A stretch of DNA of 64,000 nucleotides from Candidatus Bathyarchaeota archaeon (GTDB taxonomy: Archaea; Thermoproteota; Bathyarchaeia; Bathyarchaeales; Bathycorpusculaceae). Shown here piece by piece: positions 2,981 to 34,305 of the stretch. The stretch spans positions 224,001-288,000 of the forward strand of contig CAVZJV010000014.1 in NCBI GenBank assembly GCA_963775685.1. Reading direction: 5' to 3'. The notes beneath the pieces were generated by a model. The model was given only the letters and a program-made list of their open reading frames with translations. It was not told where the DNA came from and searched no databases. Within the stretch, counting starts at the first letter, position 1; each line of letters begins with the position of its first letter. The position numbers and the translations under genes were made by a program.

Positions 2981-3582
2981 TTAAAAAAGAAAAAATATTA
3001 AGCTGATTGATTTTTGTCTTATTTGTTTTGGTATCTCCATGACAATCCAACACAGATTGCTGTGACGATGACTGCAAAGGTTCCCCTCGAAAGCAAAGTC
3101 AAGAGTTAGTGGTCCAAAACCGTCGCTAAAAACAATAAGTCTTCTTACCGCGTCGATTGTGTAGAAAATTGGGTTTATACTTGCAATCGCTTGTAACCAG
3201 CTGGGCATTTGGGCGATGGGGAAGTATGCGCTGCTTGCAAACATTAGTGGTAGTGTTATGAGTTGGAAGATTGCTTGAGGCATTTCCATTCTTGTTGCTC
3301 TAAGTGTGAGGGCGGTGAAGAACGATGACTATACCGATGCTGATTAGAAATACAATTGCGAATGCGCCGAATATGCTAAGCGCGCTAAAGTTGCTTCCAG
3401 TGATAAGTCCCAATGCGAACGCGATTAGGGCAACGATTGCTGATCGGAAGATTACGCGGATGCTGGGAGCTAAGACCTTGGAGAGAATTATGGGTGATCT
3501 TGCTACTTGGGTGCTTAGGACCTTGTTCAATAAGCTCTACAAGGAAGTTATAGAAAAAATCCCGCCAGATCGTATCGTGCAA
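2981..3582 (-). pseudogene. ABC-2 type permease remnant
   Basis: Fragments NKVLST...ILSKVLA and LPLMFASSAYFPIAQMPSWLQAIASINP lie in separate ORFs; the N-terminus is missing. Confidence 0.65.
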
Positions 3583-3636
3583 AAATGTAAGTTTAAATCT
3601 ACACCCAATTAATATTCAATTATGGAGCATCATTAA

Positions 3637-4443
3637 TTGTCTTACGTCTTCAATATACCCTATCGTAGCAACCTAAGACTTAAAGCTGTAATGGAAAGAG
3701 TTAAAGACGACAAAAAACTCAAAACCTATTGGTGGTGCGCAAATGTTATGGCGATTGAGCGCATGGGATACACTGACCATGGACCAACCCATGTGAAAAT
3801 TGTAGCCAACCTCGGTCTTAAGCTTCTTCGGATTCTAACGGAAAAGAAACTCATCACTCCCAGCATAGTAGAAAATTACAATATGAAAAACGAGGATGCT
3901 GAAGTGGTTGTTGTGTTGGGCTCAATTTTTCACGATTTGGGAATGATTGTGCAGCGGAATAACCATGAAAAATACAGTGCCTTCTTGGCCATGGAGTTCT
4001 TCGAAAAGTTCCTGACCCCAACCTACACTGAGGAAGAAAAAGCAATAATCACATCTGAGGTCCTCCACGCCATCGTAACCCACGAAGAATCGCCCAACAA
4101 TCAGCCAACAAACAGGATTTTAACCAAAGAAGCAGGAATCGTAGGAATCGCTGACGCTTTAGATATGGAATCTGGAAGGGCCAGGATTCCCTTTCAATCA
4201 GGAAAAGTAGATATTCACGCGGTTTCCGCCCTGTCTATAGAAAAAGTAGACATAGAGTTAGCAGAAAAAGGAGTAAAACCAATCAACATTAAAATCAAAA
4301 TGTCCAATTCCGCTGGGGTTTTCCAAATCGATGAGCTCCTAAAACCAAGAATTGTTAACTCAGGGCTCGAACAATTTTTCCATGTTATCGCAGAAATAAC
4401 AGGCGAAAAGGAAACGAGAATTATAGAAAAATTCGAAATCTAA
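3637..4443 (+). CDS. HD-superfamily phosphohydrolase (archaeal type)
   Basis: DHGPTH...FHDLG...H...ADALD metal-binding pattern. Confidence 0.85.
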   Translation: MSYVFNIPYRSNLRLKAVMERVKDDKKLKTYWWCANVMAIERMGYTDHGPTHVKIVANLGLKLLRILTEKKLITPSIVENYNMKNEDAEVVVVLGSIFHDLGMIVQRNNHEKYSAFLAMEFFEKFLTPTYTEEEKAIITSEVLHAIVTHEESPNNQPTNRILTKEAGIVGIADALDMESGRARIPFQSGKVDIHAVSALSIEKVDIELAEKGVKPINIKIKMSNSAGVFQIDELLKPRIVNSGLEQFFHVIAEITGEKETRIIEKFEI

Positions 4444-4465
4444 CACCTCATTTTGGAGAAAAAAC

Positions 4466-6190
4466 ATGATTCATCAATACGATGTTGTTGTCATCGGAGG
4501 CGGAATCGCAGGATTATATGCCGCCCTAACTGCTCAAGAAAATTCCAAAGTCGCAGTAGTAAGCAAGGTACATGTTACTCGTTCCCATTCGGTTGCTGCA
4601 CAAGGCGGAATCGCGGCAAGCCTTGGAAACGAGGAGGAAGACCATTGGGAATGGCACATGTATGATACAATCAAAGGCAGTGATTTTCTCGCCGATCAGA
4701 ATACAGTGGAGATTTTAGCAAAGTCAGCCCCAACGGCTATCTGGACGCTCGAGCACATGGGAGTTCCCTTTAGCCGAAACAAAGAAGGCAATATTGACCA
4801 ACGCCGATTCGGAGGACACACCAAAAAATTCGGCGAAGCACCGGTCAAACGTGCATGCTACGTTTCAGACCGCACAGGAAGAGCAATAATGGATACCCTC
4901 TACGACAGCTGCATCCAAAAAGGCGTAATCTTCTACAATGAAATATTCATTCAGCATCTGCTTTTTGAATTAAACAACTGTTGTGGAGCTGCAGGGTACG
5001 ACGTGGCAACTACGCAGCCTCATGTTTTTCATGCTAAAGCGTTAGTGCTCGCCACAGGAGGAAGCGGAAAAATCTACAAAACCACGAGCAACGGCTTTGC
5101 ATCAACGGGCGATGGCTTCGCATTAGCGCTCGAGGCAGTTTTGCCGCTTGAGGACATGGAGTTTGTGCAGTTTCACCCAACAGGCATCTATGGATTGGGG
5201 ATTCTCATAAGTGAAGCGGCAAGAGCAGAAGGCGGCGTTTTAAGGAACGGTCTTGGTGAACCTTTCATGGAGCGGTATGCGCCCACGCTCAAGGATTTAG
5301 CGCCTAGAGACATAGTTTCACGTGCAATCCTTAGTGAAATAAGCGAGGGCAAAGGTATAGAAGGCAAAGACTACGTTTACCTGGATTTGACAAGCATCGG
5401 TAAAGAAAGTCTAAACCAGAAGCTACCAGAAATAACATCTTTCGTTAAAACCTACTTGGGAATTGACCCAAGCCAAACGCCAATTCCTGTTGCACCAACC
5501 TGCCATTATACGATGGGCGGAATCCCAACTGATGTTGACGGACATGTATTGGCAGACAAAGTTGGGACAATTCTGCCAGGTTTGTATGCGGTTGGAGAAT
5601 CTGCATGCGTGAGCGTTCATGGAGCAAACCGTTTAGGTTGCAACTCACTGATTGACTTGGTTGTTTTCGGGCACAGAACGGGTTTAAGTATTCTAAAAGA
5701 GATTAAAGCAAAAATCATTCATCCGCTTCCTTTACAAGCCGAAAATATCGTAATAGATAAAATAAGCAGTTTACTAGAATCTGAAGGCAACGAATGTGTT
5801 GCAGTCTTGCGGGAAACATTGCAGTGCTTGATGACAGAGCAATGCAGTGTCTTTAGGAACGGGCAAACCCTTAAGAATGCGCTTGTGCAAATTCGCCACT
5901 TAAAAAAACGTTACATTAACATTAACGTAGCTAACAAGTCCAAAGTCTTCAACTATGAGTTGCAAGAAGCCTTAGAGTTAAGTAACATGCTTAGGGTTGC
6001 TGAGGTTATTGTTTATTCAGCGCTTCTGCGCACTGAAAGCCGGGGAGCCCATTTCCGAAGCGATTACCCAGAACGAAACGACGAAGAATGGCTCAAACAC
6101 ACTTTCGTTAACCAAACCCCAACCAGCCTGCAAGAAAACTTCAAACCTTTGCTACCGGGCAGGTTTGAGCCCCAATTGCGGAGGTATTAA
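4466..6190 (+). CDS. sdhA: Succinate dehydrogenase/fumarate reductase flavoprotein subunit
   Basis: GGGIAG, RSHSVAAQGG (covalent-FAD His), QFHPTG, SEAARAEGG, HYTMGG, HGANRLG, ESRGAH. Confidence 0.95.
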   Translation: MIHQYDVVVIGGGIAGLYAALTAQENSKVAVVSKVHVTRSHSVAAQGGIAASLGNEEEDHWEWHMYDTIKGSDFLADQNTVEILAKSAPTAIWTLEHMGVPFSRNKEGNIDQRRFGGHTKKFGEAPVKRACYVSDRTGRAIMDTLYDSCIQKGVIFYNEIFIQHLLFELNNCCGAAGYDVATTQPHVFHAKALVLATGGSGKIYKTTSNGFASTGDGFALALEAVLPLEDMEFVQFHPTGIYGLGILISEAARAEGGVLRNGLGEPFMERYAPTLKDLAPRDIVSRAILSEISEGKGIEGKDYVYLDLTSIGKESLNQKLPEITSFVKTYLGIDPSQTPIPVAPTCHYTMGGIPTDVDGHVLADKVGTILPGLYAVGESACVSVHGANRLGCNSLIDLVVFGHRTGLSILKEIKAKIIHPLPLQAENIVIDKISSLLESEGNECVAVLRETLQCLMTEQCSVFRNGQTLKNALVQIRHLKKRYININVANKSKVFNYELQEALELSNMLRVAEVIVYSALLRTESRGAHFRSDYPERNDEEWLKHTFVNQTPTSLQENFKPLLPGRFEPQLRRY

Positions 6191-6191
6191 A

Positions 6192-6914
6192 CTGAAAGTT
6201 ACCTTCAAAATTTACCGCTTTAGCCCGGAAACCGATGTTGGGCCTCACTACGACATCTTTAACATAGACGCAAAGCCAAATGAACGAATACTCGACTGCC
6301 TAAACCGAATCCGTTGGAAACAAGACAGTACACTTTCTTTTCGTATGTCGTGTGCTCATGGAATCTGCGGTTCAGACGGATTAACAATCAACAACCAATC
6401 CGCTTTGGCTTGTCAAAAACTAGTCAAAGACTATGACTTTTCCAAAGAAATTCTTGTTGAACCGCTAAGGTACTTTGAGGTTATTAAAGACTTGATTGTT
6501 GATTTAAAGCCTTTTTTTGAAAGAATCAAATCAATCACACCTCAGTTAGAACAAGAAAACATACTTGATGCACTTGAAAAGGAGCGAAACCAAAGCTTTG
6601 AGGAACGCAGCCGATTCGACGATGCCCTTAAATGCATTTTATGCGGTTGCTGCTATGGCGCTTGTCCAGTTATGACTGAACAGGATCACGAATTTGTAGG
6701 TCCAGCAGCAATCCTTAGGGCACAACGCTACATTTTTGATTCAAGAATAACTGATGCGAATAAACGTTTGCAAATCATTCAGAAGCCTCATGGAGTTTGG
6801 GGCTGCAAAAGCTACTATGTGTGCACGATAGTTTGTCCAAAGCACATTAAAGTCACAGAAGCCATACTTAAAACTAAAAAGAAAATAATCCAAGAAAAAC
6901 CCAAAACCCAATAG
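6192..6914 (+). CDS. sdhB: Succinate dehydrogenase/fumarate reductase Fe-S subunit
   Basis: SCAHGICGSD..C, CILCGCCYGACP, CKSYYVCTIVCP. The homologous start (x)KVTFKIYRF falls on CTG 6192, 6 nt after GGAGGT; the ORF-track start 5997 overlaps sdhA. Confidence 0.92.
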   Translation: MKVTFKIYRFSPETDVGPHYDIFNIDAKPNERILDCLNRIRWKQDSTLSFRMSCAHGICGSDGLTINNQSALACQKLVKDYDFSKEILVEPLRYFEVIKDLIVDLKPFFERIKSITPQLEQENILDALEKERNQSFEERSRFDDALKCILCGCCYGACPVMTEQDHEFVGPAAILRAQRYIFDSRITDANKRLQIIQKPHGVWGCKSYYVCTIVCPKHIKVTEAILKTKKKIIQEKPKTQ

Positions 6915-19899: not shown

Positions 19900-20380
19900 T
19901 TCTTGTTAATAATTTGGGTCGCAGGCGATTTTTATTGCCTCAGAGGGTCGAGAAAACGGCTGTCAAGATGCAGAGGAAGGCGGCAAATATGAAGGCTGTG
20001 TCAAGGCAGATATAAGCTTAGGAACGTTGCAATGTTTCCAGCGGCGAAGTTTCGGTTCGTCACCAGATCAAGGCGGAACATAAAGTCGGGAACTTTGCGT
20101 TCGATGATCGGAAACACAGCCAGCCGGGATAGACTATTAGCCATTGAGGCTATCGCTCAGGGGTTGCTCCAGTCCACCGGCGATTGTCGTAGGGTGTTAA
20201 ACCATAAGTAATAACAAGTAAAATCGGGGTTAAGCGGTCTCCAAAGCTGATGTTCCCAATGTGTCAAGTTTCTTTTTTCTTCTATGGATGTGTTGTTACT
20301 TAGTTTCCAGTCTGACGAAGCTGTGTCGATGATGCCAACAGGAACGCCGATTAAGAAGACCAGCCGCCAATCATAAACCC
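19900..20380 (-). pseudogene. MFS (DHA2-like) transporter remnant
   Basis: Minus-strand fragments WRLVFLIGVPVGII and LDTLGNISF..LLVITYG with stops and frameshifts; boundaries approximate. Confidence 0.45.
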
Positions 20381-20401
20381 TCTACAAATCTAAAAAAGGG
20401 T

Positions 20402-20596
20402 TTAACCCTCTTTTAGAACAACCGCTTTAGCCTCGCATTGAGCAACGCAGTCACCGCATCCACGGCAGAAGGTTGGATCCACAATGTTGGGTTCTTCAGT
20501 GCTTATGCGGAAGATGGCTTTAAGGTGGCAAGCCTTTGCCGCATTGCACTTGTCACATCGAACGCATTTAAGTGGGTCAATATAGGCTATAGTCAT
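20402..20596 (-). CDS. 2x[4Fe-4S] ferredoxin-like protein
   Basis: CVRCDKCNAAKAC and CRGCGDCVAQC. Confidence 0.85.
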   Translation of the reverse strand: MTIAYIDPLKCVRCDKCNAAKACHLKAIFRISTEEPNIVDPTFCRGCGDCVAQCEAKAVVLKEG

Positions 20597-21065
20597 GTTT
20601 TACCTAGCTGAAAGGTTCAGATAAATATCATTTGCCCTTTTGCTCGAACAATCAGGGTGGAGGCAGTAATTTGCAGTATCGATACTTGCAACAATAAGCC
20701 TTCAGGCTTAAACGCAACAAGCTCGGGATTACCGTTAGAACCACGTACATGATGACTGCCATACTATAACTTGAGCTTTTGCTTGTACCGGGAATGCCGT
20801 TGCTTCCCAATGTTAGTTTTGAAAGTTAAGCGAACCCTTTAGTCCACGATTTACAGTAATAACAAGAATTGCATAGTAATCTCCAAATCACAATTAAGAC
20901 TACAAAAGCTGAAAAACCCAGAAAAAGCCTTCCAAACAACTCATTAATTAGCCAAATAGAAAGGGACTAAGTAACCCAAATAGCGAGTGTAAAGGCACCA
21001 AAAAAAGCAGAGATTTTGTGGCTTCAATTTTCTCGTTGTCATAAACGGTCAAATGTAGCACAGCC

Positions 21066-21480
21066 TTACTTCTCTTTTTTCAAGAAAGGCTTAAACTTGG
21101 ATTCAATGTATGATTTGGGACAAGCCCTTATGATGGTTTCTACTGCTATGCCGTTTTTGAGAACTGCCAAAGTAGGAATGCTCAGGACTCCTAACTTGTG
21201 TTGGACCATCCTGGTTTTCGTCAGCGTTCATTTTTCCAAACGCTGCCTTCCCAGCATATTCCCCCGCAAGTTGCTCATTCAAAGAGCCAACCATTCGACA
21301 AGGACCGTATCATGGGGCCCAAAAATCAACAACCAAAAGATCGTGCTTTGCGGCCTGCGAGAAAAAGTTGCTTTCAGTTAAGATAATAGGTTTGCTTGTG
21401 CTATCTTTTGCGGATTGTCCTGCTGAAGAATTTCAGCGATTTTTTTTCTTTGGATTTTCTCCAGTTCAGGGTACGTTTGG
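21066..21480 (-). pseudogene. trxA: Thioredoxin pseudogene
   Basis: KPIILTESNF...LVVDFWAP*YGPCRMV...[19 protein letters not shown]: WCGPC degraded to *YGPC, plus frameshifts. Confidence 0.8.
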
Positions 21481-21652
21481 CGAATTTATCATACTTTTGC
21501 TCGTTTTGTGCATTCAACCATGCTTTTCGAGTTTTCCATGTTGGTGAACCGCAACATTCTTCTTCGGGTACGCCCAAGGGGCATTCAAGTTTTTTCTGCA
21601 TTATTTTTCACCTTTTTGATAATGTTATATGTGTTGGAAATTATGAATATGT

Positions 21653-21673
21653 TGTGGTATTGTCAATACCACA
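21653..21673. promoter_or_regulatory. Perfect 10-1-10 palindrome TGTGGTATTG-T-CAATACCACA in a divergent intergenic region
   Basis: Read directly; lies between the minus-strand trx/ferredoxin genes and the plus-strand wHTH regulator. Confidence 0.6.
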
Positions 21674-21709
21674 CAATATTTGTATTTTGGCAACAGCGAG
21701 TAATAAAAT

Positions 21710-22100
21710 ATGGACAGCATTCAATTCCTTACTTTTCGGAAAGAAGTTACAAGCCAAGACACATCAGTTGCCTCTACAACCTAAAACCCATAGATCTGGA
21801 GGTATTCGTCGAAGTAGCAAGAAATCAATGGGGCCCCTTGACCAAATCGCAAAAAAGGTGCAAAGAGACCGAAGCTCTACCCACCGCTGCCTAGCAAAAC
21901 TTGTCGGTGCAGGTCTTCCGCAAACAATCCCGAGGTCTACAGGGGGAGGCTACTACCACGTTTATACAATAGTTGAACCCGCCAAAATCAAACAGCAAGC
22001 AAAGGAAAAAGTAAAAGACATAACAGACAGCCTTCAAGCCCTAATCGAAAACTTTGACGCTGACCTCCAAAAGCACCTTTCAAGTAGCACGCCAGCCTAA
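21710..22100 (+). CDS. TrmB-like/COG3355 wHTH transcriptional regulator, frameshifted
   Basis: CLYNLKPIDLEVF, then LDQIAKKVQRDRSSTHRCLAKLVGAGL...GGYYHVY, split across frames. Confidence 0.72.
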
Positions 22101-22119
22101 ACGGTGTTTTCTCAGTGTT

Positions 22120-22929
22120 TTACTTTGAGCTTTTAGTTGGCATAATTTTGTCTTTGATGAGTTCTTTTAAGGTTTTATGACAATTGCTGCATTCAAACAT
22201 CGAATTGCCGCATTCGGGACAGAACACCTCTTGGTTTATCATCCGTTCCAAAAGCGCCAGCAACTCAGCCTTATTATGAACTTCACGTGGCGATTCCTTC
22301 CCTCCAAGGACACCATGTGCATCTTCTGTTTTAGGTTGTGGATTTTCACTGGAGACGATTTCCTGGTAAACCTTCGATATACTGGTTTTTCCTTCCCTAA
22401 GCTTTTGCTTCTCGTCTTCGCTAGCTTTCTCCATGATCTTTTTGCCCCGCTCGAGGGTTCGAGTAGAAATGCCCGCTTTTTTGGCTACGACTTCCGTGGC
22501 TTTTGCTTTGAGTTCGAGTTCCGGCGCTGTGTCAGTGTCTTCTTGCGCTAACCCCAACTGTAAAGCTCGACCGTTTTTGCCACCTTTTACTTGCCGTTTC
22601 TTGGCAAGAGCTTTCTCTATCTCAAGCAACGGCACAGCTAATTCTACAAGCTGGAAGTTATTGAGGTGGCGGCGCCTAAGGTTTGCTTCGATGACGAATT
22701 TTTTCTCTAAAAGTTTGTCGTCAAATTTGCGGACTTCAAAGTCTGGTTCGAGTCCCAGATCGTTGCAGGCTCGAAAGCGGTGGTGCCCATCTAAAACTTC
22801 TAAGTTTTCATTAACGATAATGGGGTAGTGTTGTCCTTCGTTTTGGATTGAGCTTTTAAGTTGGGCGAATTCTTCTTCAGACATTCTTGGCAATAGGTTA
22901 TCGTATTCAGGGTTAATGCGTAGGCTCAT
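22120..22929 (-). CDS. ParB/Srx N-terminal domain protein with HTH and C-terminal Zn ribbon
   Basis: LKSSIQNEGQHYPIIV..VLDGHHRFRAC, NLRRRHLN, VAKKAGISTRTLER, CPECGNSMFECSNC. Confidence 0.85.
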   Translation of the reverse strand: MSLRINPEYDNLLPRMSEEEFAQLKSSIQNEGQHYPIIVNENLEVLDGHHRFRACNDLGLEPDFEVRKFDDKLLEKKFVIEANLRRRHLNNFQLVELAVPLLEIEKALAKKRQVKGGKNGRALQLGLAQEDTDTAPELELKAKATEVVAKKAGISTRTLERGKKIMEKASEDEKQKLREGKTSISKVYQEIVSSENPQPKTEDAHGVLGGKESPREVHNKAELLALLERMINQEVFCPECGNSMFECSNCHKTLKELIKDKIMPTKSSK

Positions 22930-24570
22930 GGATACCCTATTGTTCTTTGTCGGTTTTGTTATTTAAGTTGAAGGGTTCTAAACGGTTTCACTTAGCGCAT
23001 AGTTCTGCATTGTGGGTTCAGATTGCAGTCACATATTCTTTTATTTTTACTCTGGCTTTTATATGACATGCGTATGAAACCCGAACCCGCGTAGAAACGT
23101 TTGACGGCGTAGCATTTAACCAAAATGCGGCTTGTTCTCTCCTCTCTCTCCCTCAACTTTTGCCGCACCAAGTTAAAAAAAGGCTGTTCCGTCAAACCTC
23201 CTTTTCTACTAACTGAACGAACATTAACTTCTTCATTCTTGGAGACAAAATTTGTTGATCCACAAACACGAACAATAAGTAAAGGGTCTACATGGGTTTA
23301 TAGTGTCCTCAAAGTTTTATTGTGGAACCATCATACCTACGATGCGACTGTTGACTATGCTTTTTACACGGATGATTTTATGATTGATATTACAGAGAAG
23401 GGAATATACTCAGACAGTTTTTACATTTCCACATGTAACATTGCTTCAATCTACAATAATTATTCAATGGACTTACAAAAGATTCCTTTGTGGAATATTT
23501 TTTTATACAAATGTAACAAAAATAAATTGACCCCCATTAATCCAAAAAATTATTTTGCCATTAGAAGTTCTTGTTGATTGCTATCAGTGATATAGGACTA
23601 TCATAACTCTGACCCCTTTCATTTTTGCTATTCGAGCTGGAGGCGTGATTATGACATTTGGAATTATAATTTCCACGTCAACCTTACTTGTTGGAGGAAT
23701 TCTTCGGTTAGCCAGTGTTTTTTCATATGAGTTTTTAGGCTCCTTCGAAAAAATTAATGTTGTTACAAGAGTATTAACGAAGGCTGTGGCTATTTCAGTT
23801 TTATACTTATAATTAGTTATAACAGGGATAAGTTGGCTTCATTTCTTGTCTGGGCTTCGATTAATAAGTTATGCAGTAGGGCGGGGCTTCACCGGAGCGT
23901 TATCAATCGAAAATAACTTGGTTTAAGAGTTTTAGTTCTGCTATAGGTGTTACAATCGGAGTCTTATCCATTATTGCTATTTGCTATTTTCTTTTCATTG
24001 GTTCCTATCTCTTTAGGGGGCTAAATACCCAAGTTACATGACCTATGGTTATTTTGAAAGAATAGTTCTTACCTGATAGGGGTTGATTGTTTGGCATCAG
24101 CAATCTTCGACATTTTTCTAAGAAGGCAAAAATAGATTCTTTAATTGCAAAAAGTGCTGAGATTGAGCACCCATCTGAATAGCAATGTACTATATCTATA
24201 GCAAGTCCCTTCTTAATAGAGTGCATTTCGTCTCTTCTTCATCGGACCACCGTATCAAGCAAAGACTGAACAAACATGATAACCTTTTCTCTCTTCAGAA
24301 AAGCATTCCTTGATTTCTCTTGAGCTTTTCTAAGGAGAAAATGGGTTTATAAGAATAAGGAAAAGAGGAGAGAAATGATGAATCTCTTATCGTTACCCAG
24401 AAATGTATGAATTAAGCGCCATTAATCTAAAACCACAAGTATTATTAGAAAGCTTGCAACTAAATTCTAAATCAGTAGTAAAGTTAAAATCTCATCATTG
24501 CGCGAAAAACTCGCATTAGTGTGATTAGCCAGTATCAAATAAGTATAATTTACATAGGAAGTGCACACTT

Positions 24571-25755
24571 ACGGGAACATCCCAAACATTTACGATAAAG
24601 TACGTTGTACATGCTAAATTTGAAATTGAAGGTGTAGTTGAAAAACCCGACGTTATAGGAGCAGTTTTTGGTCAAACAGAAGGCCTTTTCGGCCCAGAAC
24701 TAGACTTACGCGAACTGCAGAAAACCGGGCGCATCGGAAGAATCGAAATAGACCTACATTCCAAAAACGACCGAACTAACGGTTCAATTACCATACCCAC
24801 AAGCCTAGATCGCGTATCCACAGCCCTCATCGCAGCAAGCGTAGAGAGCATAAACCGTGTTGGACCCTGCTCAGCCAAAGTTCTTCTCGAAAAAATTGAA
24901 GATATCCGTGAAGCTAGGCGAAAAATAATAATCGATCGCGCCAAAGAAATTCTTCACCGATGGAACATCGAATCCATGCCTAGCGTCGATGAAGTCTACA
25001 AAGAAATCAGCGACACCATGAAAGTAGGCAAAGTCGAAAAATACGGACCCGAAGACTTGCCAGCTGGACCAGGATTAGAAGGCGCCAAGGAAATCTATGT
25101 TGTCGAAGGTCGGGCAGACGTCATTAACTTGATGCGATGCGGAATATTTAATACCGTGGCCCTTGAAGGTGCAAAAGTCCCTGACTCTATAAAGAAGATA
25201 ACAAAAGAGCGAGTAGCCACTGCGTTGCTTGATGGCGACCGAGGCGGCGACCTAATCCTAAAAGAGCTCATGCAGGTAACCAACGTCAAGTTTGTCGGTC
25301 GCGCTCCCAGAGGTAAAGAAATCGAAGAATGCAACTGCAAAGAAATCAGCGAAGCCATAGAAAACAAGCTTCCAATATCTGAAGCAGGCGGCAAACCAGC
25401 ACCAGTCCCAACACCGCCAAAGAAGGTAATTCAAGTACCAGAGCGAGTCAAAATTGACGTCCCAGACACCATAACTCAAGCCGCAAAAGCCTTGGTGGGC
25501 ACACTCGAAGCTGTCCTGCTAAATGAGAAACTTGAATTAATCGAACGTCTCCCAGTGAGTCAACTCGCCGAAAAACTCAGCCAAGTAAAAGACGTCGAAA
25601 CATTGGTTTTCGACGGCATCATCACCCAACGAATCGTTGACATAGCCGCAGACAAGAACATCAAACGCATCGTTGCTTCCAGAGTCTCTGAAGCAGTCAA
25701 ACCAGCCCTTAACGTTGACTTGATAACGTTCAAAGATGCGATACCGGCAGCCTAA
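24571..25755 (+). CDS. dnaG: Archaeal DnaG (TOPRIM; exosome-associated primase-like protein)
   Basis: Frame is open upstream of the ORF-track start 24976: KYVVHAKFEIEGVVEKPDVIGAVFGQTEGL, VVEGRADV, DGDRGG. Start placed at ACG 24571. Confidence 0.93.
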   Translation, partial: TGTSQTFTIKYVVHAKFEIEGVVEKPDVIGAVFGQTEGLFGPELDLRELQKTGRIGRIEIDLHSKNDRTNGSITIPTSLDRVSTALIAASVESINRVGPCSAKVLLEKIEDIREARRKIIIDRAKEILHRWNIESMPSVDEVYKEISDTMKVGKVEKYGPEDLPAGPGLEGAKEIYVVEGRADVINLMRCGIFNTVALEGAKVPDSIKKITKERVATALLDGDRGGDLILKELMQVTNVKFVGRAPRGKEIEECNCKEISEAIENKLPISEAGGKPAPVPTPPKKVIQVPERVKIDVPDTITQAAKALVGTLEAVLLNEKLELIERLPVSQLAEKLSQVKDVETLVFDGIITQRIVDIAADKNIKRIVASRVSEAVKPALNVDLITFKDAIPAA

Positions 25756-28145
25756 ACATAATCCATTAGGTTCCGGATTTCTTCTGTTTCTTTCGCTTCT
25801 TTTTGCAACTCCGCTTTTGTTACGTCGAAAAACGCGAGTATCCGCGAGGCTGCAGGCAACACCTGGTTAGTTATGTAGTAATCAACATCAACTTCCTTGG
25901 ATTTAGCAAAAACATATGGCTTCACCCTGTTGTAGAGACGCCCTTTTCCTTCAAGAATAACATAGCCCACTTTGTCGCCGCCCGTCAGCCGCCAACCTTT
26001 TTCCTTGAGAATTTTTGCCGCTTCCACATGCGGGGCTTTTATGGCGTATGAATCGGGGGCTTTGGTAAGTGTTTTCCAAATAACTAAGTCATGTAGAGGG
26101 ACCTTGTGGTGTTTTAAGTCCTCAACCACCCCTCGTACATAACCAACTGCGTTCTTGGCGGACTGCTCTCTCAGGATTATGTTCAAAACGTGTTCTTGCA
26201 CCTTCTTAGCTACCTCTGCCCAGTCGCCGCGGATAACCTCCAAGCCCACGATGTCTAAGCTGCCATCCTGTCGCAAGCCAGCGTAGCGTTTTTTTGCTTC
26301 TGTGAAAAAAATCCGCTGGTATTTCTCGCCAATTTCCACATCCAGTTTAAGGTCGCGTTTAATTTCCTGTTCCAACTCTGCAACTTTGGCTTGGTCGTAA
26401 CTTAGGAACAAGCTGTCGGTGTCCCCGTAAACAACCGATAGACCTGCTTTTTCAGCCATCTTGCTCGCGGTCAAGATGATGTGTCTGCCCCATGCGGAAG
26501 CTGCTTCAGCGACCGGCTTAACGTACCATCTGGCGCCCACCCAGCCAGCATAGCCGTATGCTGCGTTTGTTATGACTTTTACGGCTTTCTGGCGTGCATC
26601 CAGAACTCTGTATTCAACGGTGGTTGGTTTTATAGTTTTCATTCGATGGCGTATAGTTCCTCTTACGTTGATTAGATAGGTGAGTGATTCCTTGTAAAAT
26701 CCCGCCGGTGATTTACGGAACTTATGGCCCACTTCCGGCGCCACGTAGACGCCGCTTGAGGGTTCAGGTTCGTCGGGAGCTATGTAGGTGTCTGGGGAGA
26801 GGTTGTAGTTTATCATGATGTTTGGGTACATGGACTTGAAGTCTAAAACAGCGATATTCTCATGTAAACCTGGCTTTGGTGAAAGCACAAGTCCTCCTAC
26901 ATATGGTATGTAGGTTTGCTCGAGCCGTTTTGGTACGAGTTCACCGATTTTCTGTCCCTGCTTAATGAGGAACCACTCCACGCGGAAACCCACAGCTGCT
27001 GTCATCACATGGTCAAGAAGCAAGCTCGTTAAACTGGAAAGTTGCAAGGCAAAATCCAAAAGTAAGATAATTGCACCCTGTACTTTGCAGGCGCTATCCA
27101 ATCCAAACCTACACAGCTCTTCGCGGTGTTGTTTGTCATCCCAATAGTCCGCAAACTCAACATCTTCAACGATGGTCTGCTTGTCTTTCATGACACCTAA
27201 ATGGTCGGCCAAATTCCAAAGTGTTTTAACTTTAACCTCAGGAAACACATCCATGAAATCAGCCAAATCAATGTTAACAACCCCTGTGGTAGAAACATGC
27301 CCGTAAACGCTTGTGTGAGGTTCCCGTTTGGCTCTGTCAAAGTTTAGTTTTAATTTCAATTTTCGGGACCTGCCCTTGAGATACGTCCAGTCGACCGTGT
27401 TGGCACCATAGCTTGTGATGATGTCTGGGTCAAACTGGCAGATGTAGGCGATGAACGCTTCGATGACAGTTTTGTCGTCCTTGTCCTCTTTTGCGATGAA
27501 CTGTTTTTCTTCGCCGCTATTTGCTGCGGTTGAGATGATTAGCACAGGGTTGCGATCAGGTTTGGGTGAGCCCTCGCGGCTATAGCATATCATTGAGAAA
27601 CCAAGGATCCTCAACATTGGAACCGAGATATCTTCGATTTGTTTGGGCGGTGAATAGGCAGTATAAACCTTAGTTACCCTTACCCCTTCAGGGTTAGCTT
27701 CTTCCTCTGCCTCGACTTTGTGCCAATTGCAAGGAACCACATCGTTGTCAATTAGGTATCGCATGGCAGCGCGAAAGTCATCTTCGAGGCAATCTTTCAC
27801 TCCTTCGAAGCTTCGAAGTGAACTGGCTACCTTGCCAGTTTCAGTTGCGACCCTGCAATAAACTTTTATTGTCTTTACTGGCTTGCCAAAGAAGCGGCGA
27901 GAGGCAACCTCCGTCTTCACAATTGATGAAGCAAAGCTTTTCATGATGGCTTCTGCAACCTTCGACGCGTCAGACCCTTCCATCAATACAGCATAAAAGT
28001 AAGCCGTAAAGTTACGGTCAATAACGAGAACCCGATTACCATTACCGTCAATTCCCCAAAGCCACAACTCAAGTGTGCCCTTGTCCTTGTCGATTTTAGG
28101 GTTAATATCCAGCAGCCAGAAAGTCACATTCACAAACAACGCCAC
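25752..28145 (-). CDS. polB: Family B DNA polymerase (PolB3-type) with degenerate 3'-5' exonuclease motifs
   Basis: VLDFKSMYPNI, QKAVKVITNAAYGY, YGDTDS, KKRYAG, GLEVIRGDW intact; N-terminal FWLLD and GSPKP.RNPVLIIS resemble crenarchaeal PolB3. Confidence 0.93.
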   Translation of the reverse strand: MALFVNVTFWLLDINPKIDKDKGTLELWLWGIDGNGNRVLVIDRNFTAYFYAVLMEGSDASKVAEAIMKSFASSIVKTEVASRRFFGKPVKTIKVYCRVATETGKVASSLRSFEGVKDCLEDDFRAAMRYLIDNDVVPCNWHKVEAEEEANPEGVRVTKVYTAYSPPKQIEDISVPMLRILGFSMICYSREGSPKPDRNPVLIISTAANSGEEKQFIAKEDKDDKTVIEAFIAYICQFDPDIITSYGANTVDWTYLKGRSRKLKLKLNFDRAKREPHTSVYGHVSTTGVVNIDLADFMDVFPEVKVKTLWNLADHLGVMKDKQTIVEDVEFADYWDDKQHREELCRFGLDSACKVQGAIILLLDFALQLSSLTSLLLDHVMTAAVGFRVEWFLIKQGQKIGELVPKRLEQTYIPYVGGLVLSPKPGLHENIAVLDFKSMYPNIMINYNLSPDTYIAPDEPEPSSGVYVAPEVGHKFRKSPAGFYKESLTYLINVRGTIRHRMKTIKPTTVEYRVLDARQKAVKVITNAAYGYAGWVGARWYVKPVAEAASAWGRHIILTASKMAEKAGLSVVYGDTDSLFLSYDQAKVAELEQEIKRDLKLDVEIGEKYQRIFFTEAKKRYAGLRQDGSLDIVGLEVIRGDWAEVAKKVQEHVLNIILREQSAKNAVGYVRGVVEDLKHHKVPLHDLVIWKTLTKAPDSYAIKAPHVEAAKILKEKGWRLTGGDKVGYVILEGKGRLYNRVKPYVFAKSKEVDVDYYITNQVLPAASRILAFFDVTKAELQKEAKETEEIRNLMDYV

Positions 28146-29639
28146 TAAAACATTACAAACAGCTCACTTTAAACCATTTTCTCAAAACCCTATCTCGCCT
28201 CTGCTGGGTTAGTATATTGGGTCCTTTAGAAACATCACTAATAGGTTTGGTTACTTGCTATGAGTGAAGTGAAAAAGTTCGTTGTTTTCATAGACGAGTT
28301 TTTAGAATCTACTTCAATGGATCCACTTTTTGTTTGATATCGGTATTCTGAAGTTAAAAAGTTAAAATCGACAAGGGTAACCTGAAAGAAATTGCCGTTG
28401 TTCAAATACCATTGAATATAGGAATCAATTTTAAAGGTAAACGATAGGCGATATTAGGCAGTGATAGCATCGGCACCAGGAAAGTCTATTCTTTGAGCAT
28501 AAACGATTTTTATCTAACTTCACATGATAATCCCCTATAAACCTACATAGTAAACTATGCATCATCAAACAATTATACCCCGTACACGTGGAAAAAGAGT
28601 GTTGAAGATTTTTGAATTCACCGAGAGGTAACGGAATAACTGCCTATTAGTATGCAACGGAACAAGTGCATTAAATTATTTTGCAACCCCCAATAAACAT
28701 CAAACCTTCTTTAATTCAGTTAGGCTTGTTGCTTTATATACCGGGTCTAAAAGTGTTCTGTCAGGTCTTCAGTTATCTTTTTAAAATGAAGACTTTAGGT
28801 TAAAGGCGTTAAAAGTGGAGAGTATCATTTAGTTCCGCTACGACTAAATGGGCTATATACTCAACTCTGCAAAAACACTTGGGATGACGAGCAATATGCT
28901 TTTATCTGTTGATTCATTCAGAATAAGGTGTTCGAGTAGCCAGATGCCTCCTGCTGAAAATATAAGAATGATGCCAGCAGTAAAATAATCCAAAGCTTTT
29001 GATTTATTCAGTTATCGTTATACCAGCTAACAAGTGACTTTGCATAAATAATTTTTGATAGAGAAGACTAAATCACTCCATAATATTGTAACACATCTTT
29101 GAAATAAACAATTTTTTCTTTAGTACAACGATTTTGTTTATCTCATTTTTTGATTAAACGGTTGACCGTTTAACAAAAAGACTTTTGGGTTGATCGCGTT
29201 TTTTGCTCAAGTGCATTTGGGCCTCTATTTTTATTCAATGTTTGCTTGTAGCGGCGAAAAGTAAGTTACCGTTGGTGGATTAAGACTATTTCCAAGCACA
29301 CAACTGACTGATTCTCTCTAAGATAAAAGATAGCAACCTTAATTTCGAGTTTTAAATAACCCTAATTTCGTGCGAGAAAATCAACTTCTTATTCTAATAA
29401 CTTCTACCACTGCTGTCATTTTGTTATTTATAGCTTATTTGTTAGTTAATTTTAGTAATGGACAGACAATGCCAATGATGACTTCTACGCCCACTCCTAC
29501 TCCCCGCGGCAAATAACTCCGAGTAACATTTGTTTTAGTTGGAACGGCAATCATCATATCCGTAGCTGTTGTTGTAATTTATTTTTTCTATTTAAGAAAA
29601 AAGAAAAGCATATTTTCTGAATCCAAATTCTCGCCAAGC

Positions 29640-30124
29640 ATGGGAAGTCAACCAACAGGTGGTTTAAAAATAGATTCAAGCGACAAAGTCTCACTCCCTT
29701 TCGAGGTCTTTCTTTGCTACAAAAAGAGTTCAGGAAGAGATTATGCTGACCATTTGAAATCAGGTTTAGAAGAGCTTGGATTGCACACGTTCGAGGACTG
29801 TAAAGATATACCTCAGACTGTTGACACAGAAGAAGGTTGGGCATGTTCTCGTGATAGAGCGTTGGAGGAAAGTAAGTATTTTGTTGTTATCCTGACTCCT
29901 GGTTTTGAATTGTCACGTGAGGTGGTTAACGAAATTGGATGGCAAGAAAGCAAGCCAATAAAACGTTTGTTTATTTTAGGCATCGAAGCATGGGCAGAAA
30001 CATAGTGGTTAATTTGGGGGATGAGGTTTTAGATATCGGAAGACTTGAACAAGTCTCTTTTGAGACCAAAGAGGAATTGTTGCGGATTGCGCATAATATC
30101 CTTTTAAAGACTAACACAATGTAG
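29640..30124 (+). CDS. Stand-alone TIR-domain protein, one frameshift near 29938
   Basis: VFLCYKKSSGRDYADHLKSGL..GLHTF.D, ALEESKYFVVILTPGF..SREVVNEI, continuing in a second frame as MARKQANKTFVYFRH. Confidence 0.8.
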
Positions 30125-30273
30125 ATTCCATTAACATACCACTTACAATATTCTTTAATTAGGGTAGTTATTATTTTGTTGGATGAAAAATTGGGGCAGC
30201 CTGACATAGGTTTTTAAGTAATCCACTAACAAATATTTTGACCGGGAAAATTAGGCAACGTTTGCTTCTTGGG

Positions 30274-30621
30274 TTATCCTACTTCTCTTCTTGTTGTTCC
30301 ACAATTTGTGCATCTGAAGAGGGTGATAGTTGAGTGGCTGGTCTCGTTCGCCGTTTCCACGTTCCAAGTTTCGCTTTCGTTGTAACCGCACTTTGAACAA
30401 ACGACCTTAACTATGGATAGTTGTCTTAGCGAAGCTGCTTTTTTGTCTATGACCACAATTTCTACTAATTTTTTACTGGGTACATTTATTTTTTGTTTTG
30501 TTTCTTCTTTGTTTAGAGGTTTTTGATATTTACATTTTGGGCATCTAAATGAAGGAGAGCCCTTCCTGACTACTTGGAGTAATGCCCCGCATTGTGGACA
30601 AAAGTTCAATGTGGTCACCAA
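30274..30621 (-). CDS. TFS/RpoM-like double Zn-ribbon protein, non-canonical paralogue
   Basis: FCPQCG..CPKC..CSKCG..FRCTNCGTTRRE architecture; lacks the QTRxxDE motif. Confidence 0.82.
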   Translation of the reverse strand: MVTTLNFCPQCGALLQVVRKGSPSFRCPKCKYQKPLNKEETKQKINVPSKKLVEIVVIDKKAASLRQLSIVKVVCSKCGYNESETWNVETANETSHSTITLFRCTNCGTTRREVG

Positions 30622-30634
30622 TATGGAGGCTTTT

Positions 30635-31165
30635 CTAATTGTAAATGCTTTTTATGTCTTGCGACTTTATGCATTTGGGAATGCAAAAAACAATCCATCT
30701 ATAGCAACCCTCAAAGTTAATTGGAATCTTGGATTGCTCGGCAATCTTTGCATATAACGCTTGATAGTATTCTACTTTGGCGTTTTGTTTTTTTAGCCTA
30801 AGAGAATCTACTATCCCATGAACAACCTCAAAACCCACTATCTTCTGCTAATTGAGCCTCATTCAGAAACGCTTCTCGCCCAAACGAACAAACCCAAATA
30901 TGACCATCGACAATGCTGAATTTAGCATTTTTGAATCCTAAATAGCCAAAACAGGTAACCAGGATCCATTTAAGAGCCTTTGCCGCTTATCATAAACCTC
31001 CATAAAGTATGCTAACTAAACGTTCAAGGTCTGCTGTTGTTCCTGAAACATGGATTTTGGGTTGGAATTTGTCGATTAGGCGGATGCGTTCGTCCTTTTT
31101 CGCTTATGATCTATACAACTACTTCCCCTTCATCACCAGGATAAACATCAAGATCCTGCCCTTAA
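30635..31165 (-). pseudogene. PolB2-type DNA polymerase remnant with a large internal deletion
   Basis: Fragments ILDVYPGDEGEVVV..IRLIDKFQPKIHVSG (N-terminus), KALKWILVTCFGYLGFKNAKF, and GFEVVHGIVDSL..INFEGCYRWIVF. Confidence 0.8.
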
Positions 31166-31784
31166 CCTGCTAAACCTCCAAACAATCTGAAACTTTTTTT
31201 CATAGTTAATCTTGTGAGCACAAGCATCAGCTCAAATCCATATAAAACAAATGGACAAAACTTCTTAGCGTAGAAGTGAAGGGAAGTATGACAGTGAAAT
31301 TCCCAAGCGCGAAAAGTAGCCTCAATTTCTCAATATCAATATTTTTATGGTTTCAATTTAGTACTGTTTAGTAAACCTTTTAAGCATCTGAATATATCAA
31401 GACACACTATATAATACAAAAACAAGGAAGTGACAGACCATGGATCGCCCATATACACTCCCATGCCAGAAAGCAAGCTTTAGCAGCTGTGAAGGATGTC
31501 CAAAAGAAGACTGCCATTCAAAGCATTACCTAAGCATGGAACCACAAAAAATTTACGCATAACTGATGAAAGATTCCATAACATCATCTACAATTAAAAG
31601 TGTTTTCTGAAAATGATCAGAAGAGGAAAATTAAACCGAATTTGACCGCAAAGGAACTTCACTTTAAATGTTAGGCGTAAATAGCAATTAACAAGTATTT
31701 TTAATGAAGGTTCGCTAACTTAATTTCTACCTTTACGCTTCAATTTCTTACTTGTTCAAAACTGCTGTGGAAAAAACGCAAAAG

Positions 31785-32459
31785 TTAGCTTATGATTGTT
31801 CCAACGTTTCCGCCCTCGATCGCAATTAAAATGTTTTCAGGCTTAAAGCCGTTCACGACTACCAGTTTTAGCCGTTTGCGTCTGAGAACTTTAATGGCTT
31901 CAGGATCAATAATTTGGTGAATTCCTGCTTTGTGCTCGCAGTGTTCAAAGACGGCAGCTAAATCCTCAAGCGATAAACGGTCAAATTTCACCGCATTTGG
32001 GTGTTTTCTCGGGTCTTTATCGTAAACTCCGTTTTGGTCAGTTCCTTTTACTAGTAAATCCGCGTTGACACGTTCAGCAACCAAGGTAGCAACTGCATCT
32101 GTAGTAATTCCTGGCTTCAAACCACCCATGACCACGATTTTTCCCTCGCCAAGATACATAGCTGCTTCATCAAGCGTTACTGCGACTTTGTTGCAGCCAG
32201 CATTGCCGAGTTTTTTGAGGAAAAGCTGCGCGAAAAGCCGTGAACATGAAATCGCAATGTCATCCTGGTCCACCATGTCTAAACCTAAATTGCTGGCGAT
32301 ACAGATAAATTCCCTCGCCAAAGCGCCACCACCTAAAACCACGGCAACCTCATGTCCCAGTTGCTTGACAGTTTTGATTATTTCCGCATATTTACTCATT
32401 AAGTCGGTGTTGACTGGTGATGCAACCACTGAACCGCCAATTCGGATAACTAAACGCAT
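31785..32459 (-). CDS. pyrH: UMP kinase (archaeal)
   Basis: VIRIGGSV, VLGGGALAREFI, MGGLKPGITTDAVA, GVYDKDP. Confidence 0.93.
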   Translation of the reverse strand: MRLVIRIGGSVVASPVNTDLMSKYAEIIKTVKQLGHEVAVVLGGGALAREFICIASNLGLDMVDQDDIAISCSRLFAQLFLKKLGNAGCNKVAVTLDEAAMYLGEGKIVVMGGLKPGITTDAVATLVAERVNADLLVKGTDQNGVYDKDPRKHPNAVKFDRLSLEDLAAVFEHCEHKAGIHQIIDPEAIKVLRRKRLKLVVVNGFKPENILIAIEGGNVGTIIS

Positions 32460-32554
32460 ACTTGATCTTCCTTGTTGGCTAACAATACAGTTTAGGGTTA
32501 AAAATCTTTAATATCCCAACAGCAGTTAAAGCAAGGATAAGGAAAGAAACAGGG

Positions 32555-33478
32555 ATGGTTTTCACTGAAACATTCACCATAGAACCGTTGGCGCCTTTCA
32601 ACTTTGATTTAACCGCGCAAATCTTCAGCAACGGCGACAGTCAAATCCGCTCCTACGCAAACGGCGTGTTCCACCAAGTTCTAAAAGTTGATGACACCCT
32701 TGTTTTGGTAAAAATAACCTCCAGCGGAATAATTGAAAAACCAAAAATAAAGGTTGAACTAAAATCAAACAGCCAAATAAACCCCCAAGATAAACAGAAA
32801 ACCAAAGAAGCAATAGATTTTATCTTTAACTTGAACTTCAACCTCTGCAGTTTCTATAAGGACATTGAAAATGATCCTGTAATTCACCAAATAAGCCAGA
32901 AACTGTACGGATTAAAAAACCCCACAACCTCAACCGTCTTTGAATCACTTGTGGACTCTATTGTGGAGCAACAAATCTCCATAAAAGTTGCACACACAAT
33001 CGAGCAGCGGTTAACAAAAAAATTCGGTGCCCCCCTCCAAATAGAAGGCAACACCTCCTTTGCTTATCCAGCACCCCAAAATATCGCTGTCCTATGCCTA
33101 AGCGACATCCAGCAGGTTGGGTTAAGCATGCGTAAAGCAGAGTACATTCATGGGGTAGCAAAGCTAATTGCCGACGGGAAGTTGGATCTTGAGGCTATGA
33201 AAAACCAGAAAAATCATAAGCGAATCATTGCTGAATTGGACGAAATTAAAGGCATAGGTGTCTGGACAGCGGAACTTACCATGCTGCGGGGAATGCAAAT
33301 GTTGGATGCTTTGCCCGCGGACGATTTTGGAATTAGGCGTGTGATTTCTAGGTATTATTACGGTGGAAAGCCGATTAAAACAGAGGAAGTACGTCAGATC
33401 GCCACATCTTGGGGAAAATGGAAGGGGTTGGCAGCTTTTTACCTGATTATCGCGGAAGTCAAAGGCATAGTGGTTTAG
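32555..33478 (+). CDS. alkA: DNA-3-methyladenine glycosylase II (AlkA-like HhH-GPD)
   Basis: FESLVDSIVEQQIS, IKGIGVWTAE, LPADDFGIRR, WGKWKGLAAFYL. Confidence 0.9.
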   Translation: MVFTETFTIEPLAPFNFDLTAQIFSNGDSQIRSYANGVFHQVLKVDDTLVLVKITSSGIIEKPKIKVELKSNSQINPQDKQKTKEAIDFIFNLNFNLCSFYKDIENDPVIHQISQKLYGLKNPTTSTVFESLVDSIVEQQISIKVAHTIEQRLTKKFGAPLQIEGNTSFAYPAPQNIAVLCLSDIQQVGLSMRKAEYIHGVAKLIADGKLDLEAMKNQKNHKRIIAELDEIKGIGVWTAELTMLRGMQMLDALPADDFGIRRVISRYYYGGKPIKTEEVRQIATSWGKWKGLAAFYLIIAEVKGIVV

Positions 33479-34305
33479 CTTGTTAAGCGTTTCTTCATTA
33501 AGTTAATGCTTAGGATAAAGAAGAATAGCGTAACGACAATTATCCAGACGAAACTGATCAGGATTAGAACAGCTGGAGTTAAGCCAAGTATGGGTTCTAG
33601 GTGCCCTGAAACAAGGCCTCTTGTAATGTTTACAATATGCGTCAGCGGCAAAACCAAGGCTGCTCCTTGAGCGGCAATTGGTAGCGAGGTTAAGGGGAAG
33701 AATGTGCCGCATAAAAAGAACATCGGCGTCAAAAACAAAAACGAAGGAAAATTAAAAAAGTCAATGTTTGGCGCAACTGACGTGAAGCACATTGCTATGG
33801 ATGCAAACATGAGTCCTCCAAAAAAAGCAAGTGGAATTACCAACAAGAACAGTGGGCTGGAAATTAAGCCGAAAGCTGCAACTACCGCCAAAACAATTAT
33901 TGTGTTGATGGTTGCCCTTGTGGCTCCCCAAAGCAGTTCTCCAGTCACAACCTCTTCAACGCTGACAGGTGTGGCGACGATGGCGTCAAATGTCTTTTGG
34001 AAGTACATGCGTACAAACGAGGCAAAAGTGCATTCAAAAAATGATCCGTTCATGATGGAAATCGCCACAAGTGCAGGCGCTATAAACGCGATGTAAGATT
34101 CTCCCTGTATGCTTGGGATAAATCCTCCCAAGCCAAAGCCGAAAGCTAAAAGGTAGAGGATGGGTTCAAGCAGGGATGGTAGAAAGTTAACTTTTATAGT
34201 TTTTGTGAATACGTCAAAGTTGCGTCGCCAAACCTTCCAAACCCTGTATGTCAATTTAGGCATGATGAAACGGGCTGGTGACTTGTGAAGGTTAGGTTCA
34301 CTCAT
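33475..34305 (-). CDS. ABC-2 permease (NodJ-like)
   Basis: LEPILYLLAFGFGLG, SFFECTFASFVRM, TPMFFLCGTFFP. Confidence 0.9.
   Translation of the reverse strand: MSEPNLHKSPARFIMPKLTYRVWKVWRRNFDVFTKTIKVNFLPSLLEPILYLLAFGFGLGGFIPSIQGESYIAFIAPALVAISIMNGSFFECTFASFVRMYFQKTFDAIVATPVSVEEVVTGELLWGATRATINTIIVLAVVAAFGLISSPLFLLVIPLAFFGGLMFASIAMCFTSVAPNIDFFNFPSFLFLTPMFFLCGTFFPLTSLPIAAQGAALVLPLTHIVNITRGLVSGHLEPILGLTPAVLILISFVWIIVVTLFFFILSINLMKKRLTS

Follow-up and report, generated by a model that had tools for sequence, protein, structure and literature searches.

The Bathyarchaeia are among the most abundant archaea of sediments and soils, and DNA synthesis in them would be divided among PolD, PolB1, PolB2, PolB3 and the Y-family polymerases. 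The closest described relatives of the polymerase considered here are crenarchaeal. The structure 5mdn is that of PolB3 from Pyrobaculum calidifontis (Kazlauskas et al. 2020, PMC7544198), and in Sulfolobus islandicus PolB3 is non-essential, although its loss sensitises cells to 4-nitroquinoline 1-oxide (4-NQO) (PMC8100216). For archaea that carry PolD, a role in repair is presumed for PolB (PMC8100216). The window analysed here is a stretch of 64,000 nucleotides from a Candidatus Bathyarchaeota archaeon (positions 224,001 to 288,000 of contig CAVZJV010000014.1, assembly GCA_963775685.1). It encodes a PolB3-group polymerase in which the polymerase site is intact and the proofreading exonuclease (exo) site appears to have been inactivated.

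In the available portions of the literature, loss of the exo site is discussed for other groups. The section of PMC7544198 on B1-3 treats it for B2/G2 only, and neither "Bathyarchaeota" nor "Bathyarchaeia" occurs in the available main text of that paper. Exo inactivation is mentioned for PolB2 only in the available part of PMC4104785, and for Pol alpha only in that of PMC12680538. No description of an exo-dead PolB3 in Bathyarchaeia or their relatives was found in the full-text literature searched, and supplementary motif logos might show such enzymes.

The polymerase and its exonuclease site

As the first-pass annotation of the window had recognised, the gene encodes a full-length PolB3 of 797 amino acids (aa) with intact polymerase motifs; the open reading frame (ORF), the Pfam matches and the alignment to 5mdn agree on this. 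Chain A of 5mdn is the best solved relative (phmmer E 1.7e-210, 44% identity). The Pfam domain DNA_pol_B covers residues 379-771 (4e-61, 207.6 bits versus a cut-off of 23), and DNA_pol_B_exo1 covers residues 121-298 (5.2e-21, 75.6 bits versus a cut-off of 23). Family-B motifs were defined as DxxSLYP type (A), KxxxNxxYG (B) and YxDTDS (C); all three are present (Table 1), in columns that are invariant in the comparison alignment A2. By these domains and motifs the protein is classed as a family-B DNA polymerase.

Within the family, the protein is assigned to archaeal PolB3 (the B3 group). It shares 27-33% identity with the PolB1 and PolB2 of its own genome, and the split between PolB3 and PolB1 has a support of 100 in two trees, both without euryarchaeal B3. 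Near relatives, with identities of up to 83%, are metagenome-assembled genomes (MAGs) labelled Candidatus Bathyarchaeota or Bathyarchaeia. All nine of the listed NCBIfam models for archaeal DNA polymerase I and II equivalogs score below their curated cut-offs, and the top NCBIfam model is TIGR00592, at 234.7 bits versus a cut-off of 239.95.

An intact proofreading site was defined by ExoI DxE, ExoII NxxxFD and ExoIII YxxxD. At these positions the window PolB3 has S184 and I186, then G247 and V251 (D252 is kept), then F347 and S351. The peptide ILGFSMICYSRE, translated from 27573-27608 on the minus strand, places S184-M185-I186 at 27588-27596. In the phmmer alignment to 5mdn_A, FSMICY stands opposite FDIEVY in ExoI, YGANTVDWTYL opposite YNSNGFDWPYL in ExoII, and FGLDSA opposite YVLDDV in ExoIII. 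Three of the four metal-binding carboxylates are lost, together with the ExoIII Tyr and the ExoII Asn and Phe, and only D252 is left. The earlier reading of S-M-I in ExoI, an altered ExoIII and a lone ExoII Asp is thus borne out by translation and phmmer. Three 151-base metagenome contigs are identical to the window (26193-26343, 27096-27246 and 27418-27568), and none spans the ExoI codons or S351; they come from two soil-metagenome DNA runs of one study, which may be the source sample. The two runs contain 5-9% of sampled sequence words, and no RNA run is listed among the public runs that share such words.

The C-terminal residues, NLMDYV, resemble what we take to be the consensus of the PCNA-interacting peptide (PIP-box), and an L-x-[D/E/G]-[F/Y]-x ending is seen in 14 of the 15 C-termini inspected among the PolB3 set. 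A pattern count of PIP-like tails (141 of 195) was dropped, since the pattern also matches an internal RILxxFG motif. The protein ends at residue 797, and because there is no Cys in its last 80 residues it has no zinc-finger C-terminal domain.

Table 1. Positions of the PolB3 gene, its motifs and other features. Coordinates are those of the window, except for the PolB2 operon, which lies elsewhere on the same contig.
Feature	Position	Strand	Remarks
PolB3-group family-B DNA polymerase gene	25752..28145	(-)	797 aa, GTG start, frame unbroken
ExoI site S184-M185-I186	27588..27596	(-)	D-I-E in intact PolB3
ExoII site G247-A-N-T-V251-D252	27390..27407	(-)	Asn and Phe replaced; Asp252 kept
ExoIII site F347-G-L-D-S351	27093..27107	(-)	Tyr to Phe, catalytic Asp to Ser
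Polymerase motif A D435-F-K-S-M-Y-P441	26823..26843	(-)	intact
Polymerase motif B K523-V-I-T-N-A-A-Y-G531	26553..26579	(-)	intact
Polymerase motif C Y573-G-D-T-D-S578	26412..26429	(-)	intact
C-terminal N-L-M-D-Y-V, PIP-box-like tail	25755..25772	(-)	putative PCNA-binding
Archaeal dnaG-like Toprim gene	24529-25755	(+)	convergent with PolB3; NCBIfam PRK04031, 4.3e-68
ParB_N-domain protein, 269 aa	22120-22929	(-)	syntenic in 26/63 named loci
HhH-GPD DNA glycosylase, 307 aa	32555-33478	(+)	AlkA/Ogg-like below cut-off; syntenic in 2/63
Zinc-ribbon ORF, 115 aa	30274-30621	(-)	beside the PolB2-like relic
PolB2-like relic	~30674-31161	(-)	~490 bp, ~2.5 kb from PolB3
Complete PolB2 operon	L275 (G000:C14:1628000-1637500), 3369-6611	(-)	86-aa protein without Pfam match

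Conservation of the exonuclease-dead state

PolB3 sequences were gathered from 40 relatives, from 150 genomes belonging to the class and 300 belonging to the phylum, and from two scans of named genome records. In the class scan 79 of 151 genomes (the window genome counted) match at E 1e-100, and in the phylum scan 174 of 301 match at E 1e-80. ORFs of at least 700 aa with motifs A and C were kept and split or truncated copies were excluded, which left 195 distinct sequences. Each was scored for four carboxylates: the ExoI D and E, the ExoII D and the ExoIII D.

None of the 63 distinct sequences from the Bathyarchaeia (own genome, genus, family, order and class) keeps all four; one keeps two, 49 keep one and 13 keep none. 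The first-pass annotation had proposed aligning the orthologues and mapping their exo states on a tree, and this finds a dead site in 63 of 63. Two or fewer carboxylates are also found in 94 of the 100 sequences from named records (two in one sequence, one in 79, none in 14), and the six that keep all four are, without exception, labelled Thermoprotei, Thermoproteales or Pyrodictiaceae. The 32 sequences from other genomes of the phylum are more mixed, with four carboxylates in 18, two in two, one in six and none in six. Outside the Bathyarchaeia, dead PolB3s occur in MAGs labelled Korarchaeia, Methanomethylicia and Culexarchaeum, and named records with such enzymes include those of Methanodesulfokora washburnensis, Candidatus Methanomethylicia, Candidatus Culexarchaeum nevadense and Hecatellales. 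The Asp and Tyr of motif A are present in 195 of 195 sequences, and motif C reads YGDTDS in 182, YSDTDS in 12 and YADTDG in one.

Alignment A2 has 20 intact and 72 dead sequences. All of the intact ones share the ExoI D and E, the ExoII N and F and the ExoIII D, and none of these five residues occurs in more than 8% of the dead ones. It is the whole exo catalytic set that is lost, rather than a single residue. The position of the ExoI Asp is occupied by S, H, Y, F, W, T or N in different dead lineages. Because the substitutions recur in every Bathyarchaeia orthologue examined, the exo-dead state is no product of chance or sequencing error. The earlier claim that the changes are not indel errors holds as well, as they are substitutions in an intact frame and are shared by orthologues. 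The loss is conserved throughout the class and beyond it, and is not peculiar to the window genome.

Phylogeny, selection and fold

FastTree and IQ-TREE trees were built without the exo-motif columns. In the former (99 representatives of less than 70% identity, plus seven PolB1 outgroups), the intact PolB3s form one clade of 23 rows with a support of 100; the latter (LG+C20 with posterior mean site frequencies, PMSF; 67 rows) recovers the intact clade with 18 rows and a support of 99. When rooted with PolB1, the intact clade is nested among dead lineages, with a very long root branch (2.92 on each side) and a weak backbone support of 84-93. A reduced LG+G4 tree of 42 rows splits 29 dead rows from the intact rows and the outgroup (support 91). 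The trees are compatible with a single ancient loss of the exo site, and several losses may have occurred. In either case, the loss is older than the genus, the order and the class of the window genome.

The intact clade itself contains three secondary partial losses (L182, L183 and L187), which at the ExoI D and E, the ExoII D and the ExoIII Y and D read DEVHS, DQTHS and SEDYN, respectively. The genomes of L182 and L183 (G436 and G416) have PolD, and that of L187 (G435, 3.0 Mb) is without it.

The entire window PolB3 is under purifying selection, the exo domain included. The Nei-Gojobori (NG86) ratio of nonsynonymous to synonymous substitution rates (omega), taken over 66 pairs from 12 close orthologues, is lowest in the polymerase domain (0.053) and highest in the N-terminal domain (0.21), with 0.072 in the linker and 0.098 in the exo domain. 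These values are rough, since synonymous divergence (dS) is often above 1 and close to saturation in many pairs. Members of the dead group share on average a pairwise identity of 0.455 in the exo domain versus 0.581 in the polymerase domain (ratio 0.78), and members of the intact group 0.515 versus 0.593 (ratio 0.87). On the strength of omega and these ratios, the exo domain seems to be somewhat relaxed yet clearly maintained.

An AlphaFold2 model built with 99 sequences has a mean predicted local distance difference test score (pLDDT) of 94.7 and a predicted template modelling (pTM) score of 0.91, and every 10-residue block of its exo domain has a pLDDT of at least 87. In Foldseek, the model matches 5mdn_A with an E-value of 8.1e-76 and template modelling (TM) scores of 0.84/0.87. 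The full length of the model aligns with 5mdn and with Thermococcales polymerases, at TM scores on the query scale of 0.70-0.85 (0.83-0.85 for the ten best).

Other polymerases and the distribution of PolB3

The window assembly (3.06 Mb, 14 contigs) contains three family-B polymerases. A listing of the other polymerases in the genome, also proposed earlier, yields PolB1, PolB2, DP1, DP2 and two Y-family enzymes. The PolB1-type protein (916 aa) has an intact exo site, reading AAIDIEVYS, FNGDDFDLRYL and YCLRDSE, and a YGDTDS motif C. The PolB2-type protein (762 aa) has HGIVDS as motif C. PolD is represented by its large subunit, DP2, and its small subunit, DP1.

The presence of PolD was compared with the state of PolB3 in 46 genomes of known PolB3 state, a non-random set of about one per family. 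DP2 is present in 27 of the 28 genomes with a non-intact PolB3 and was not found in the other; among the 18 genomes with an intact PolB3, it is present in two and was not found in 16. This pattern is a lead and no demonstrated correlation, as kin are non-independent and the pattern reduces to one deep split and a few events inside the intact clade.

Among the 107 high-quality genomes surveyed in the class, a PolB3 match is found in 65 and was not found in 42 (one protein query, E 1e-100), and on this ground PolB3 seems to be accessory. In G040, a relative assembled in one contig (97% complete), the hits are all of the PolB1 or PolB2 type, with identities of 28-33%, and the near-complete genomes G006, G017, G118, G143 and G148 of the same genus, all fragmented assemblies, have no PolB3 match. 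In four of 30 relatives' loci (G001, G012, G023 and G025), PolB3 is interrupted by a TAG or runs across two adjacent frames. These may be either assembly indels or real decay, and would fit a dispensable gene.

Genomic neighbourhood

The dnaG-like Toprim gene neighbours PolB3 in 59 of the 63 named loci and in 53 of 66 other loci. Its first ATG (24976) comes after the conserved N-terminus, KYVVHAKFEIEG, and no in-frame ATG, GTG or TTG occurs between the stop codon at 24526-24528 and that N-terminus. The codon preceding K-Y-V is ATA (24595-24597). At this site ATA is found in 38, ATT in three and GCT in one of the 42 related loci with the motif, and in all 42 the candidate start codon follows a conserved TTTAC[G/T]. 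On this evidence the dnaG-like gene would begin at a conserved non-canonical start codon, ATA or ATT. A 90-aa ORF at 24672..24944 on the minus strand was rejected as a gene, since it runs antisense to the N-terminal portion of dnaG.

On the other side of PolB3 lies a gene-poor stretch (28001-32000, 37% G+C) in which a tblastn search with the genome's own PolB2 detects a PolB2-like relic. The relic consists of PolB2 residues 15-67 abutting residues 465-573, with an internal gap of about 400 residues, and is 71% identical to PolB2 over 49 aa. An intact PolB2 operon is present on the same contig as the window, and comprises a Rad51/RadA-like gene (239 aa, 2.8e-15), the gene for the 86-aa protein and PolB2. 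No relics of the RadA-like and 86-aa partner genes were found near the PolB2 fragment in the window. The zinc-ribbon ORF beside the relic has a ribbon of the RPB9/TFIIS type (5.5e-07) and a sub-threshold match to the TNB domain of Cas12f/TnpB, and it may be mobile-element debris. The ParB_N gene and the HhH-GPD glycosylase gene are each no more than 7 kb away from PolB3. Scanning 20000-34000 for Rfam families and tRNAs gave no match.

Function and alternative explanations

The window gene probably encodes an active PolB3-group polymerase whose exo site was inactivated in a distant ancestor, whose exo domain was kept as a folded scaffold and whose role is accessory. Such an enzyme would synthesise DNA without removing its own errors, and would probably be tethered to PCNA through its C-terminal tail. 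Its tasks would most likely be repair or gap-filling synthesis, or the extension of ends at which a proofreading enzyme would idle; accurate bulk replication would be the work of PolD, in which DP2 is paired with the DP1 exonuclease, and of the exo-intact PolB1. An error-prone or lesion-bypass role is plausible as a conjecture, and PolB2 and two Y-family polymerases are already available in the genome for such work. A broader proposal is more doubtful. In this proposal exo-dead PolB3 would mark the PolD-bearing Thermoproteota (the Bathyarchaeia and the lineages labelled Korarchaeia, Methanomethylicia and Culexarchaeum), having arisen once in their common ancestor. Labour would be divided as in eukaryotes, with PolD/DP1 and PolB1 proofreading and a PCNA-tethered PolB3 extending primer ends, mismatches or lesions, or finishing Okazaki fragments by strand displacement; the enzyme would then be an independently evolved analogue of Pol alpha and Pol zeta.

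Several points weigh against an accessory polymerase with a dead exo site. The specific cellular role is one that we only infer, the omega values are rough, and the absences were judged by a single query at a strict threshold among assemblies many of which are fragmented. In addition, the ExoII Asp252 is retained in 72% of dead sequences, and acidic columns 122, 328 and 364 are conserved in the dead group only. These last two observations, along with an Asp or Glu at position 350 in 64% of dead sequences and the purifying selection on the exo domain, could mean that the protein still proofreads, the site being rebuilt either from other carboxylates or by a one-metal mechanism centred on Asp252 and Asp350. 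This is very unlikely: five residues invariant in intact enzymes have changed jointly, for the most part to hydrophobic or small ones that differ between lineages, the acid at position 350 is equally common in intact enzymes (80%), and position 364 lies 13 residues beyond 351 along the ExoIII helix in the secondary structure of the model. The main rival to the accessory role, unlikely in our judgement but less so than restored proofreading, is that PolB3 is a core part of the replisome, an archaeal counterpart of Pol alpha that extends primase primers without proofreading and hands them off to PolD or PolB1. Like Pol alpha, PolB3 is a B-family enzyme in which a dead exo site accompanies a perfect polymerase site, the dnaG-like gene is a conserved convergent neighbour, and PolB3 is non-intact in 27 of the 29 tested genomes that carry DP2. 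However, the gene was not found in 42 of the 107 high-quality genomes or in G040, the protein has no zinc-finger C-terminal domain, and the association with PolD rests on few independent events. Moreover, the dnaG-like gene is convergent and thus not co-transcribed with PolB3, and the synteny may be merely inherited.

Two further explanations concern the state of the locus itself. The split or stopped genes in four of 30 relatives' loci might suggest a decaying gene or an assembly artefact, but this is hard to credit for an unbroken frame of 797 codons with an omega of 0.05-0.10, a confident fold and polymerase motifs that are invariant in 195 of 195 sequences (the Asp and Tyr of motif A). The least probable explanation, to the point of being negligible, is the one raised in the first-pass annotation, namely that PolB3 recently took over from a PolB2 decaying 2.5 kb away. 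A PolB2-like relic does exist there, and this much of the observation stands; it is only a fragment of ~490 bp with a large internal gap, and the complete PolB2 with its RadA-like and 86-aa partners is present elsewhere in the genome. Because the exo loss is class-wide, it cannot have been a response to local PolB2 decay, and its occurrence in 63 of 63 orthologues makes it far older than the relic.

Comparison with known systems

A naturally exo-minus, strongly conserved PolB3 with intact catalytic motifs would offer a clear and testable example of how archaeal polymerases of the replicative type specialise, and the dead PolB3s could be a natural source of exo-minus family-B enzymes. Current annotation names these genes like those of proofreading polymerases, which would mislead inferences about fidelity.

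The window PolB3 resembles the crenarchaeal PolB3 of 5mdn in length, domain order, motifs A, B and C and the kind of C-terminal tail. The exo catalytic set is the point of difference: FDIEVY, NGFD and YVLDD in 5mdn correspond to FSMICY, NTVD and FGLDS here. Sulfolobus PolB3 (Dpo3), non-essential and linked to the damage response (PMC8100216), also belongs to the B3 group, but unlike the window PolB3 it falls in the exo-intact clade.

Exo-dead B-family enzymes are known in other groups. Archaeal PolB2 (Dpo2) is one that, like the window PolB3, occurs beside other PolBs (PMC7544198, PMC8764526). PolB2 is a translesion extender encoded in a 'mutasome' operon. It differs in its altered motif C (HGIVDS in this genome), in being without ExoIII and in sharing its operon with two partners, a RadA-like gene and a small one. 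Membership of PolB2, as recognised by a single-Asp motif C with a conserved His, a missing ExoIII and the operon, was considered and rejected, as the window PolB3 has YGDTDS and its neighbours are the dnaG-like gene and the gene-poor stretch, with no operon of the PolB2 type. Eukaryotic Pol alpha and Pol zeta combine a folded, inactive exo domain with an active polymerase site (PMC7544198, PMC12680538), and the PolB3 of the Bathyarchaeia would parallel them in this. A Pol alpha- or Pol zeta-like assignment was also rejected, as the Cys-rich C-terminal domain that binds the B subunit in those enzymes is missing, no B-subunit partner is in evidence and the window PolB3 falls in a different clade; the likeness is mechanistic only.

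The same two ExoI positions are neutralised in engineered exo-minus Thermococcales enzymes, as in FAIAT (4k8z, KOD) versus FDIET (1wn7), and we take the A/A of 4k8z to be the standard laboratory exo-minus double mutant. The exo- forms of KOD, 9N and Vent are laboratory mutants in which the rest of the exo site is intact, whereas the loss in the window PolB3 appears to have arisen naturally and long ago, and takes in ExoII and ExoIII as well.

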